Below, one piece after another: positions 40,801 to 43,800 of a stretch of DNA of 64,000 nt. The stretch lies in assembly GCF_003334355.1 (NCBI RefSeq), contig NZ_QOWP01000008.1; one strand, given 5' to 3'. Position 1 is the first letter of the stretch. Every line of letters starts with the position of its first letter. A program made the position numbers. The DNA comes from Escherichia coli (GTDB taxonomy: Bacteria; Pseudomonadota; Gammaproteobacteria; Enterobacterales; Enterobacteriaceae).

Positions 40801-43800
40801 TTCTGCAAAACCAGGTTTCTGTGACGTTCCAGGTCGATATTCACCCGGCAGCAAAAATTGGCCGTGGCATTATGCTCGACCACGCCACGGGCATCGTTGT
40901 GGGTGAAACGGCGGTAATTGAAAACGACGTATCGATTCTGCAATCTGTGACGCTTGGCGGTACGGGTAAATCTGGTGGTGACCGTCACCCGAAAATTCGT
41001 GAAGGTGTGATGATTGGCGCGGGCGCGAAAATCCTCGGCAATATTGAAGTTGGTCGCGGCGCGAAGATTGGCGCAGGTTCCGTGGTGCTGCAACCGGTGC
41101 CGCCGCATACAACCGCCGCTGGCGTTCCGGCTCGTATTGTCGGTAAACCAGACAGCGATAAGCCATCAATGGATATGGACCAGCATTTCAACGGTATTAA
41201 CCATACATTTGAGTATGGGGATGGGATCTAATGTCCTGTGATCGTGCCGGATGCGATGTAATCATCTATCCGGCATACAGTAACTAATCTCTCAACAACG
41301 CTCCCGGATATCCCAGCTGCCGCCAGGCTTCATACACCACAACTGACACCGCATTGGACAGGTTCATGCTGCGGCTGTCCGGCACCATCGGAATGCGAAT
41401 TTTTTGTTCAGCGGGCAGGGCATCAAGAATGCTCGCTGGCAGGCCGCGTGTTTCCGGGCCGAACATCAGATAATCGCCATCCTGATAGCTTACGGCGCTA
41501 TGAGCAGGCGTACCTTTCGTGGTGAGGGCAAACAGGCGCTGGGGATTTTCTGCTTCGAGGAACGCGCGAAAGTCATGATGACGCGTAACGGCGGTAAACT
41601 CGTGATAGTCCAGCCCCGCGCGGCGCAGGCGCTTATCGTCCCAGGCAAATCCCATCGGTTCGATGATATGCAGACGAAAGCCGGTATTAGCGCAAAGACG
41701 GATGATGTTGCCAGTATTTGGCGGAATTTCTGGTTCGTAAAGTACGATGTTTAGCATACTGCCCCCTTAGTGCGGGGGCAGGATAGCAGAAAATTGGTGA
41801 GCAGTGCGGCCTTTTCCCCTCACCCCGGCCTCCCCCTGTCTCTTGATCAGGAGATCTGATCAAGAGACAGCTCCCTGAGGGAGAGGGTTAGGGGGAGGGG
41901 GCGCAAACGACTATGCCGCATTCCCTTTCGCCATCGGGGCCAGTGCCGCAGGCAACTCTTTACCCAGCCCCTGCACCAGCGAATCTTGCGTAATTTCGCT
42001 GATCGATTTCGCGCCAGTCAGCGTCATCGCCACTTTCATCTCTTTTTCGATCAGATTTAGCAGGTTAGCTACACCCGCCTGGCCCGCTGTTGCCAGCGCA
42101 TACAAGAAAGCACGACCCAGCAGTACGGTGTCGGCACCGAGCGCAATCATACGCACGACATCAAGCCCGTTACGAATTCCGCTATCCGCCAGAATGGCTA
42201 TATCACCTTTCACCGCATCTGCAATAGCAGGCAGTGCACGGGCGGAAGAGAGTACACCGTCCAGCTGGCGGCCACCGTGGTTAGAAACCACAATTCCATC
42301 AGCACCAAAACGTACTGCATCGCGCGCATCTTCCGGATCGAGGATCCCTTTGATCACCATCGGGCCATCCCAGAAATCGCGGATCCATTCAAGGTCTTTC
42401 CATGAGATGGACGGATCGAAGTTATTCCCCAGCCAGCCGATGTAATCTTCCAGTCCGGTCGGTTTGCCGAGATAAGCTGAGATATTACCTAAATCATGTG
42501 GACGACCGTTCAGGCCCACATCCCACGCCCATTGCGGATGTGTCACCGCTTGCAAGTAGCGGCGCATTGCCGCGTTCGGGCCGCTCATACCTGAATGCGC
42601 ATCACGGTAGCGTGCGCCCGGTGTCGGCATATCCACGGTGAAAACCAGCGTCGAACAACCCGCTGCTTTTGCTCGCTCCAGCGCGTTACGCATAAAGCCG
42701 CGATCGCGCAGTACATAAAGCTGGAACCACATTGGGCGCTTGATGGCTGGCGCGACTTCTTCAATCGGGCAAACGGAAACCGTCGAGAGAGTAAACGGAA
42801 TACCATGCGCGTCCGCCGCTTTGGCTGCCTGAACTTCGCCACGACGCGCATACATGCCACACAAACCCACCGGAGCCAGTGCCACCGGCATCGACAATTT
42901 CTCATTAAACAGCGTCGTTTCCAGGCTTAAGTCGGACATGTTTTTCAGAATACGCTGGCGCAGCGCCACTTCTGACAAATCTTCCACGTTGCGGCGCAGC
43001 GTGTATTCAGAATATGCACCACCATCCATATAGTGGAACAGGAACGGCGGCAGAATGCGTTGCGCTGCGGCGCGATAATCGCTGGCTGCGGAAATAATCA
43101 TGCGTTTTTCTCCCTCGAATGCTCATTATGCTCACCGGGCAGGCGGGTAATCCGTGCGTGGCGAGCCTGATCTTCATCGAATCGTTTCATGGTGGTGTGA
43201 ACAAAACTAAGGTGCGCCATCATTGCTTTACGCGCCCCGTCAGCATCACCGGCAAAAATGGCGTCAATGACAGCCTGATGTTGTTCGGTCAGTTGTGAAA
43301 AAACCGGTGGCACCAGATACATCCGCTGACGGCTATGCTTCACTGAGGATTGCAGGACATCGAAGAAACCGCGCATGGTTTGCAGCAGCACGATGTTATG
43401 TGAGGCTTCGGCAATCGCCAGATGAAAACGAACGTCCGCTTGTGAGGCGATATCCGGGTCTTCACTTAGCGTTGCTTCAAAGCAAAGCTGAATCTTTTCT
43501 TTGTCGCCAGGTGTGGCGCGCATTGCCGCATGCCATGCGGTGCTGGCTTCAATGGCGTAGCGGGCTTCCAGAATATCGAAACTGTAATCCGGATCATCGG
43601 CCATCAGTGTTTTTAGCGGCTGGACGATGTTTTGCTCCGACCATGTGTCATGACGCCAGCGAATAAACGTCCCGCCGCCGCGTCGACTGAGCAGCACGCC
43701 TTCACTCACCAGTTTTGCCAGCGCCTCGCGCAGTGAATTACGTGATACGCCGAGTTGCATCGCCAGTTGGCGCTCAGCGGGCAACTTCATGCCCGCTTCC

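Follow-up and report, generated by a model that had tools for sequence, protein, structure and literature searches.

The window analysed here, a 64-kb stretch of Escherichia coli DNA, contains a 35-mer in the spacer between lldD and trmL. It is framed by C-rich and G-rich inverted arms, and a separate hairpin lies near the start of trmL (Table 1). An earlier note, made from the sequence alone, had already reported these arms and this hairpin, placed the locus between lldD and trmL and quoted the 35-mer, and all of this was confirmed, the 35-mer to the letter. The G-rich arm is made of an apical mini-hairpin, CTCCC-TGA-GGGAG (41871-41883), leading into GGGAGAGGG-TTA-GGGGGAGGGGG (41879-41901). 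The arms are borne out by a DNA fold of -30.9 kcal/mol (z -6.2). All spacer alleles, down to one of only 47 bp, keep the hairpin next to trmL.

Table 1. Features of the lldD-trmL spacer and its neighbouring genes (positions in the window).
Feature	Coordinates	Strand	Remarks
35-bp element, probable ISEc13-derived remnant	41836..41870	.	15-bp arms 41836-41850 and 41856-41870; 5-nt centre GAGAT 41851-41855
19-bp inside end (IE) CTGTCTCTTGATCAGATCT, common to IS50 and ISEc13	41852..41870	-	19/19; found in Tn5-derived primers and at full-length IS ends
Three GATC (Dam) sites, 41845-48, 41853-56 and 41858-61	41845..41861	.	these came with the IS end
C-rich arm CCCCTCACCCCGGCCTCCCC of the host C/G-rich palindromic intergenic repeat	41816..41835	+	common to the K-12, 185-bp, 102-bp and 72-bp alleles
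G-rich arm	41871..41901	+	equivalent to unit 2 of the repeat in the K-12 allele; full-length ISEc13-clade insertions have right flanks of this form too
Separate hairpin CTGCCCCC...GGGGGCAG	41756..41784	-	overlaps the trmL ribosome-binding region; outside the IS remnant
trmL, downstream gene	41284..41757	-	157 aa
lldD, upstream gene	41911..43101	-	396 aa

The 35-mer had been called a perfect palindrome, which its odd length precludes: two arms of 15 nt, 100% complementary, enclose an asymmetric 5-nt centre. Its bottom strand is identical to the IS50 inside end, as had been recognised, and its top strand matches that end at 15 of 19 positions. The inside end had been given correctly, as Tn5-derived primers contain the same 19-mer (PMC9241598, PMC12310338). 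At up to 3 mismatches this is the sole match to CTGTCTCTTGATCAGATCT in the whole 64 kb, and 100 shuffles gave none. Three GATC sites are indeed clustered in the element, over 17 bp rather than the 16 first counted. No transposase homologue was detected by tblastn anywhere in the window, which extends the earlier remark that none lies nearby, and an end-motif search of the window found no complete 19-bp outside end. Such an end could account for only the first 9 bp of the element (CTGTCTCTT), and both termini of the 35-mer read CTGTCTCTT... inward. There is no 8-9-bp target duplication around the window copy, its left flank GGCCTCCCC and right flank CTCCCTGAG being identical at 2 of 9 positions.

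The 14 bp internal to the inside end match ISEc13. In total, 33 of the 35 bp (41838-41870) reproduce exactly the right end, AAGTCTCTTGATCAGGAGATCTGATCAAGAGACAG, found in full-length elements of this family, compared at loci L001, L004, L005, L049 and L072-L077. The two remaining bases are CT where ISEc13 has AA, and with them the arms become perfect (15/15). The ISEc13 right end already holds an imperfect version of the palindrome (13/15); the hairpin pre-exists there because these 33 bp encode the C-terminus of the transposase (KSLDQEI, then the stop codon). What had been taken for two abutting inside ends is thus one inside end and an inverted repeat already subterminal in the IS. The three GATC sites, too, occur in all right ends of full-length ISEc13.

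Full-length elements, labelled 'IS4-like element ISEc13 family transposase' in RefSeq, are 1550 bp long; their outside end, CTGTCTCTTATACACAA(A/G)T, begins CTGTCTCTTATACAC..., and their inside end is that of IS50. The 19 bp of the IE, two Dam sites included, are the same in IS50/Tn5 and ISEc13, and in both the transposase stop codon lies within the end. The ISEc13 transposase is clearly homologous to that of Tn5 (E 2e-83), yet well diverged, and the ISEc13 outside end differs by a T at position 4. The 13-bp subterminal inverted repeat of ISEc13 is not known from IS50. On sequence comparison, the parent of the 35-mer is most probably ISEc13, an IS50-like element of the IS4 family, rather than IS50 itself. 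ISEc13 is present in about 30 copies in the EPEC strain E2348/69, and ISEc13-like DNA was found in 2258 of 5426 complete E. coli genomes. In the literature searched, ISEc13 was found only in lists of mobile elements, and no papers were found on the 35-mer core or on the ISEc13 outside end.

All 17 independent full-length ISEc13-clade insertions examined sit in the loop of a hairpin of the form C-stem/N8-9/G-stem, and the 16 for which both flanks are available all have direct 8-9-bp duplications. In the 13 independent ISEc13 copies, the direct duplication lies between a left-hand C-run and a right-hand G-run; in 9 of the 13 it is directly abutted by 4 or more perfect stem pairs, versus 0.5% of random sites. 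The 4 further insertions, by relatives 71-77% identical, are all within CCCTCTCC...GGAGAGGG repeats, and one of them has an lldD homologue immediately upstream. In the window, the right flank (CTCCCTGAG, then GGAGAGGG) obeys this target rule and has its match in unit 2 of the repeat in K-12. The choice of hairpin loops by ISEc13 would explain why its putative scar sits within C-rich and G-rich arms. Look-ups with the transposases of L004 and L005 led back only to these two insertions, which mobile backbones carry, and added no further site.

IS1397 and ISKpn1, of the IS3 family, strongly prefer the loops of REP (BIME) sequences and make 3-4-bp duplications. Like them, ISEc13 favours loops in intergenic palindromic repeats; it differs in IS family, in the repeat used, which is not REP, and in duplication length. 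It is an IS50 relative with a strong C...G hairpin-type target preference, comparable to that of IS1397; no such preference of ISEc13 was found reported in the literature searched.

The arms themselves belong to an ordinary intergenic repeat, in which CCCTCACCC / CCCTCTCCC modules pair with their complements and which recurs at many intergenic sites. Further copies lie at 54810-54870 in the window, in the K-12 allele, at zntA-tusA in E2348/69, and at L056/L057 and L072-L077; copies devoid of the 35-mer have loops of 3-4 nt instead. This repeat may be akin to the 'box C' of Bachellier et al. A literature search (box C, IRU, RSA, BIME, Bachellier) yielded nothing usable and no box C consensus, and the family is therefore not formally named here. 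The earlier note had reserved the case of an ordinary repeat with no IS link: the arms are one, and the IS relationship is nonetheless real. A chance palindrome, or a member of this repeat family free of IS ancestry, can be dismissed for all practical purposes, since, ordinary as the surrounding arms are, the 35-mer and the ISEc13 end have 33 of 35 bp in common, shuffles give an expected count of 0 for the 19/19 match, and repeat copies lacking the 35-mer have short loops.

Among 5426 complete E. coli genomes, 797 (about 15%) carry the 35-mer allele, and in the records sampled all exact 35/35 matches are at lldD-trmL. The other spacer alleles are 47, 72, 102, 185 and 197 bp long. The comparison with K-12, proposed earlier, was run, and the K-12 spacer proved to be the 197-bp one, with a different content. 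The spacer is thus hypervariable and dispensable, with six or more length variants, of which this allele is one. A chimeric IS-plus-flank query found no full-length IS at precisely this site in any of the 5426 genomes; the best chimeric-junction match (82% coverage) lies elsewhere, at zntA-tusA. E. coli matches of 33/35 annotated 'none' proved to be truncated IS ends and not solo remnants.

The search for further copies of the 35-mer, also proposed earlier, revealed identical solo copies at 15 other loci, in Serratia, Rahnella, Budvicia, Salmonella, Escherichia sp. and metagenomes, mostly at the tips of a C/G-rich repeat like that of the window. Five of these loci are in Serratia silvae and two in Escherichia sp. 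MOD1-EC7003, compared with one per genome in the E. coli records sampled. The solo loci elsewhere have no transposase, and none of the 16 solo loci, the window included, has a direct 8-9-bp duplication. Several have mirrored flanks instead: at L011, L021, L034 and L016, every position able to tell direct from mirrored orientation is mirrored. At L043 the flanks are 7/9 identical in direct orientation. The centre exists as GAGAT or AAGAT, corresponding to the C-termini ...QEI and ...QKI of diverged transposases, which indicates that the 35-mers were derived independently. For the Escherichia sp. loci L022 and L023, a comparison with E. coli genomes gave no usable empty site, the region downstream of folA not being collinear and L023 lying amid IS debris.

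We propose, with a probability of roughly 0.78, that the 35-mer is the non-autonomous scar of an ISEc13-type element that collapsed within a C/G-rich hairpin repeat. At this locus, ISEc13 would have landed in the repeat of the lldD-trmL spacer, its targets, which are hairpin loops or palindromic C...G sites, being made of a C-rich stem, 8-9 bp and a G-rich stem. The 1.5-kb IS body would then have been lost, leaving the right-terminal 33 bp, made of the inside end and the 13-bp subterminal inverted repeat encoding ...SLDQEI and the stop codon, with two new bases, CT, replacing AA to give 15/15 arms. The remnant has in common with ISEc13 these 33 bp of right terminus and the C-stem/G-stem type of target, and differs from it by the lack of a transposase, of an outside end past 9 bp and of an 8-9-bp duplication, and by the AA to CT change. 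The lack of direct duplications at the solo loci, with mirrored flanks at several, points to recurrent collapse rather than to MITE mobility. The MITE-like relic of an IS50-family element suggested earlier is thus retained as a relic, of ISEc13 and not of IS50, and not as a MITE.

The collapse most probably took one of two routes. The first is template switching during replication at the quasi-palindrome, in which the target hairpin, through its complementary stems, would supply the homology for switching back; the second is a deletion between two 7-bp direct repeats, GTCTCTT, present in the ISEc13 outside end (CTGTCTCTT) and in the subterminal repeat (AAGTCTCTT). Judging from the end-products, collapse occurred probably by template switching. 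Quasipalindromes are known to be corrected by template switching during replication (the Ripley model, and work of the Lovett laboratory). The 35-mer resembles the products of this mutagenesis in that a 13/15 palindrome became 15/15 and adjacent sequence would have been copied inverted; it departs from them in that some 1.5 kb of IS would have been deleted as well, with a return switch proposed to use the stems of the target hairpin. Counting against our reading, the left junction in the window is explained by neither route unless there was an additional deletion, which would have eliminated the left-hand target copy. An earlier version of the deletion route, between an outside end CTGTCTCTTGATCAG and the subterminal repeat, was dropped on finding that the actual outside end is CTGTCTCTTATACAC..., and the 7-bp microhomology version was adopted. 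Hairpin-capped ends, or abutted ends as in an IS dimer or circle junction, were also discarded: they need facing termini, and the termini here point outward.

A simple scheme would be 'nearly precise excision', that is, RecA-independent slippage between the GTCTCTT repeats, after which the target duplication decayed or was symmetrised by arm-to-arm conversion. Joining the two repeats, which do exist, predicts the exact 35-mer, CT at positions 1-2 included, and the direct 7/9 identity of the L043 flanks also speaks for this scheme. There is also a precedent, the 50-bp remnant left by nearly precise excision of Tn10, reportedly described by Foster, Lundblad, Hanley-Way, Halling and Kleckner in 1981. 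That remnant is a short palindrome of fused transposon termini, produced by host processes using short and terminal inverted repeats. Repeats near both ends that predict the junction are found in ISEc13 as in Tn10, whereas the Tn10 remnant retains its direct 9-bp duplication and the 35-mers lack theirs, several being mirrored. Slippage should leave direct duplications, and none was seen at 16 loci; because the distinguishing positions are all mirrored at L011, L021, L034 and L016, a second step would be needed at each of them. We consider this scheme unlikely, though well worth keeping in view.

Alternatively, the 35-mer might itself be an active MITE-like mini-transposon, moved in trans by the ISEc13 transposase into hairpin loops. 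Its two identical termini, its recurrence across several genera, with 5 loci in a single Serratia silvae genome, its solo loci free of transposase and a target type identical to that of the full-length IS would all be expected of such an element. Like bacterial MITEs, it is small, non-autonomous and intergenic, with IS-derived terminal inverted repeats (here, 15-bp arms) and no transposase. It is unlike them in being below their typical size, in occupying one locus per E. coli genome in the records sampled and in showing no sign of movement as a unit. Direct 8-9-bp duplications accompany 16/16 full-length insertions with both flanks and 0/16 solo loci, and the left end keeps only 9 bp possibly derived from the outside end. 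Moreover, a molecule of 35 bp is much too short for its two ends to meet in a synaptic complex of the Tn5 kind, and E. coli has a single locus despite the ISEc13-like DNA in so many of its genomes. Transposition of the 35-mer is accordingly improbable.

A selected regulatory role, as an lldPRD terminator, an mRNA-stabilising hairpin or a Dam/SeqA-sensitive switch of trmL, appears more doubtful still. The minus-strand RNA does form a long composite hairpin (-79.8 kcal/mol, z -4.8), the three GATC sites are close together, and a weak terminator-like match with a 5-bp stem occurs on the minus strand at 41885-41871. However, the main hairpin is not followed by a U-tract, the minus strand continuing with GGGGAAAAGGCC, so that the G+C-rich hairpin and U-run of an intrinsic terminator are not found on the sense strand, and a promoter scan found no promoter-like site. 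An Rfam scan of 41000-42600 at a permissive E-value returned only sub-threshold noise and no family at threshold, the best overlapping match being MIR6426 (20.5 bits vs 96). The GATC sites are accounted for by the IS end itself, and about 85% of E. coli genomes lack the 35-mer and have a quite different spacer content (47-197 bp), in which only the trmL-adjacent hairpin is conserved. The Dam/SeqA or terminator function put forward earlier thus found no support. Given this polymorphism, the collapsed ISEc13 scar is most likely harmless. Its foreseeable side effects would be an RNA hairpin of very high stability in the lldD-trmL spacer, cruciform-prone DNA and three clustered Dam sites; that the site is cruciform-prone, as had been suggested, is physically plausible.

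More generally, and with somewhat less than even confidence, ISEc13-clade elements may target C-stem/N8-9/G-stem loops, whether terminators or C/G-rich repeats, and, when the replication template is switched at their subterminal quasi-palindrome, shrink time and again to one and the same 35-bp palindrome, with perfect arms and flanked by mirrored target copies. If true, this would be a previously undescribed pathway of IS loss, by which gene ends throughout Enterobacterales acquire long and very stable palindromes. That a 35-bp remnant recurs with mirrored flanks suggests that template switching can erase an IS while lengthening a palindrome, and such remnants put very stable hairpins at gene 3' ends. 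A Tn5-type end in a genome could also be misread as tagmentation or mini-Tn5 contamination. A puzzling 'Tn5 end in the chromosome' here becomes an explained IS scar, to the extent that our reading holds, and a convenient marker allele, which is carried by ATCC 8739 and by the DE3 expression strain Nico21(DE3), and not by K-12.

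The sequence at the centre of the lldD-trmL spacer had been described in the earlier note as a perfect 35-bp palindrome. In fact, this 35-mer has two perfectly complementary 15-nt arms, but its 5-nt centre is asymmetric (see the table). The 19-mer of the IS50 inside end (IE), as given in the earlier note, was correct: the identical 19-mer is found in Tn5 and mini-Tn5 derived primers. It has a sole match in the 64 kb at up to 3 mismatches, and no match at this threshold was found in 100 shuffles. C-rich and G-rich arms do surround the 35-mer, and the three GATC sites are present, within 17 bp rather than 16. 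The region folds at −30.9 kcal/mol as single-stranded DNA (z −6.2), and at −79.8 kcal/mol as minus-strand RNA (z −4.8).

Features of the spacer and its neighbours, in window coordinates
Feature	Position	Strand	Remark
trmL	41284-41757	minus	identity confirmed by K-12 annotation
trmL-lldD spacer	41758-41910		between trmL and lldD
C-rich arm	41816-41835		one side of the 35-mer
35-mer	41836-41870		two 15-nt arms around centre GAGAT
IE	41852-41870	bottom	CTGTCTCTTGATCAGATCT
G-rich arm	41871-41901		other side of the 35-mer
lldD	41911-43101	minus	identity confirmed by K-12 annotation

When the spacer was used as query against 5426 complete E. coli genomes, its centre matched genes annotated 'IS4 family transposase' at their 3′ ends, whose sequence is ...GTGATGAAGTCTCTTGATCAGGAGATCTGATCAAGAGACAG. 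This right terminus of an insertion sequence (IS) already contains 33 of the 35 bp, GTCTCTT through GACAG, and its final 19 bp are the IE. Within it, AAG TCT CTT GAT CAG GAG ATC TGA encodes the transposase C-terminus K-S-L-D-Q-E-I and the stop codon; the hairpin of the 35-mer is native to this IS. The left end, obtained by aligning two intact copies, is CTGTCTCTTATACACAAGT, which is the Tn5 outside end but with a T at position 4. RefSeq names the element ISEc13. It is 1550 bp long, has about 30 copies in EPEC strain E2348/69, and encodes a 457-aa transposase that matches solved Tn5 transposase structures over its full length (E 2e-83). In the window, neither a transposase homologue nor an outside end was found, in agreement with the earlier note as regards the transposase. 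The 35-mer is thus what remains of an IS50-like element, an origin considered in the earlier note, but its parent is ISEc13. What had been seen as two abutting inside ends is one IE together with the subterminal repeat belonging to it.

Transposases as little as about 65% identical still share the C-terminal motif KSLDQ(E/K)I (proteins P0002-P0031), so that the subterminal inverted repeat encoding it is conserved as well. This suggests that the IS itself makes use of the subterminal hairpin, for instance in mRNA 3′ end formation or end architecture.

Target choice was examined from both flanks of full-length ISEc13 insertions, 11 in one E2348/69-like genome and 2 on plasmids, giving 13 independent copies. 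All 13 have a direct 8-9-bp duplication, with a C-run directly before and a G-run directly after that can pair. Examples are CTCCCCC[GCGTGAAGC]GGGGGAG, AACCCTCT[CCGCCCGG]AGAGGGTT and, in a terminator, GATCCCC[CCGCTCGG]GGGGATTTTTTT; further sites, zntA-tusA among them, are C/G-rich repeats. In 9 copies the duplication is directly abutted by 4 or more perfect stem pairs, versus 0.5% of 9-mers picked at random from the window, and the other 4 have the same runs with a one-base offset. Relatives with 71-77% identical transposases (Serratia sp. D1N4 and another Enterobacterales genome) share the identical 33-bp right end and add four insertions, all inside CCCTCTCC...GGAGAGGG repeats. Both flanks are available for three of these, and each of the three shows a direct duplication with the loop at its centre. 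We conclude that insertions of ISEc13 and its relatives lie almost exclusively where a C-run is followed by a complementary G-run, in the loops of terminator or repeat hairpins (loci L049-L059, L004, L005 and L072-L077; duplications of 8 or 9 bp), a preference that we did not find reported in the literature searched. Since the right flank in the window, CTCCCTGAG then GGAGAGGG, fits this rule, the arms around the 35-mer are the target, an ordinary multi-copy intergenic repeat (presumably of the 'box C' family), and not part of the IS. In the Enterobacterales genome GCA_036409475.1 (L075:1492-1600), a full-length ISEc13 relative lies in C/G-rich repeats directly downstream of a lldD homologue. 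This spacer is of the kind that holds the 35-mer in the window, and it resembles the state from which the window allele presumably arose.

Among E. coli genomes this spacer is hypervariable, and the alleles recovered measure 47, 72, 102, 153/154 (window), 185 and 197 bp. The last is that of K-12, which has two C/G-rich repeat units about 55 bp apart and no 35-mer; relative to these, the window allele consists of the left part of unit 1, the 35-mer and the right part of unit 2. The 35-mer allele is carried by 797 of the 5426 genomes, and is present in ATCC 8739 and the DE3 expression strain Nico21(DE3). In all sampled E. coli records, exact 35/35 matches were at lldD-trmL, and 33/35 matches in E. 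coli were IS ends, intact or truncated. No full-length IS was found at this exact site in the 5426 genomes. The alleles (window versus spacers L002 and L006-L010) differ in the number of C/G-rich repeat units, and the 47-bp allele also in its lldD-proximal ~15 bp. Only the first ~50 bp beside trmL are common to all. These include a hairpin, CTGCCCCC-N7-GGGGGCAG (41756-41784), which overlaps the trmL Shine-Dalgarno region and start codon, is kept in all recovered alleles, and could occlude the ribosome-binding site.

Solo 35-mers, i.e. copies without an IS body, were searched as exact CTGTCTCTTGATCAG-N5-CTGATCAAGAGACAG patterns in 100,044 species-representative genomes, and also in metagenomes. 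The genomes gave 13 loci: five in Serratia silvae, two each in a soil MAG and Escherichia sp. MOD1-EC7003, and one each in Budvicia aquatica, S. proteamaculans, Salmonella diarizonae and Rahnella woolbedingensis. In the metagenomes the E. coli allele turned up again and again, together with two more loci that were new, bringing the distinct loci to 16, E. coli included. None of the 16 has a transposase nearby, and about 12 lie at the tip of a C-stem/G-stem repeat. Unlike full-length copies, none has a direct 8-9-bp duplication; instead, the linkers between 35-mer and stems often mirror each other. At L011, where CCCTCTCC-TGTCGCGA precedes the 35 bp and TCGCGACA-GGAGAGGG follows, mirroring is 16/16. 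It is 13/13 at L021, 15/15 at L016 (2-nt offset), 9/9 at L034 (1-nt offset) and L043 (5-nt offset), and 8/9 at L013 and L014. The 5-nt centre is found in both orientations. In the soil MAG it is AAGAT, which corresponds to the C-terminus ...SLDQKI of diverged members of the transposase clade. This speaks for independent origins of the 35-mers from different family members, and against the spread of one sequence.

At three loci the 35-mer lies inside a shared unit: L018:6489-6554 (Budvicia), L020:2255-2343 (Salmonella diarizonae) and L032:1215-1303 (metagenome contig). They have in common ~31 bp on the left, TTTTTGTCTATGGAAAACCCCCAGCCAGGCT, and L020 and L032 also 23 bp on the right. The unit, which follows three unrelated terminators and whose copies differ in centre orientation, may be a larger mobile unit. 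On another metagenome contig, the Nextera mosaic end CTGTCTCTTATACACATCT lies close to each terminus (L044:13-31 and L044:2741-2759); this is adapter carry-over, unrelated to the chromosomal 35-mer of that contig.

The results establish that the sequence derives from the ISEc13 right end, that this IS prefers such targets, that the allele is polymorphic and that direct duplications are absent from the solo 35-mers. Beyond this, we infer that an IS inserted into the spacer repeat and then collapsed, leaving the 35-mer. Two routes each predict precisely this sequence, with the AA-to-CT change by which the arms become perfect. A template switch is the one that we favour for the whole family. The nascent strand would fold back at the subterminal quasi-palindrome, copy the terminal AG as CT, go on to make an inverted copy of the neighbouring duplication and G-stem, and rejoin the original template beyond the IS, where the complementary C-stem lies, so that the IS and the left duplication would be deleted. 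The predicted order (C-stem, reverse-complemented duplication, 35-mer, duplication, G-stem) is exact at L011 and L021, and approximate at L016, L034, L043, L013 and L014. Less favoured is slippage between the 7-bp direct repeats GTCTCTT, present in both the outside end and the subterminal repeat, a route resembling Tn10 nearly precise excision. It should leave direct duplications and none was seen; the arms may, less probably, have been symmetrised after such slippage, and the L043 flanks are still 7/9 identical in direct orientation. For the left side of the window allele itself, neither route fits cleanly: CTCCCTGAG is missing there in both orientations, and at least one further deletion would therefore be needed.

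A regulatory or terminator role, also proposed earlier, finds no support: scans around the 35-mer gave no promoter-like site and only one weak 5-bp-stem terminator-like match, the main hairpin has no U-run after it, Rfam gave no family for the spacer region, and the structure is absent from most E. coli genomes. No sign of a selected role was seen, and the GATC cluster is simply that of the IS end. Side effects are plausible, namely a very stable hairpin in any transcript reading through from lldD into trmL and a site where the DNA is prone to form a cruciform. The 35-mer is real, and what explains it, an IS scar lodged in an ordinary repeat, is nothing new in kind. What is unusual is the perfected palindrome without duplication, and the wider pattern of insertion at hairpin-type targets and, afterwards, 35-bp remnants that recur with mirrored flanks, which we did not find described in the literature searched.

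A second C/G-rich modular palindromic repeat, without IS remnant, lies at 54810-54870 of the window (GAGAGGGCTGGGGTGAGG ... CCCTCACCCAAACCCTCTCC-GTGA-GGAGAGGGG), directly abutted by a REP-type or REP-like sequence, GCCGGATGCGGCG... (~54868-54950). In the convergent cysE-trmL spacer, a sub-threshold minus-strand match to Rfam naRNA4 (41240-41275, 23.7 bits for a threshold of 59.5) is probably a REP-type hairpin. Finally, two oppositely oriented ISEc13 copies in GCA_045344535.1 (L056 and L057; CP148541.1, ~2,304,617-2,367,867) have exchanged duplication halves, TCTCCCCAA/CGAACCAGA and TCGAACCAG/CTCCCCAAA, which indicates a ~60-kb inversion by recombination between them.
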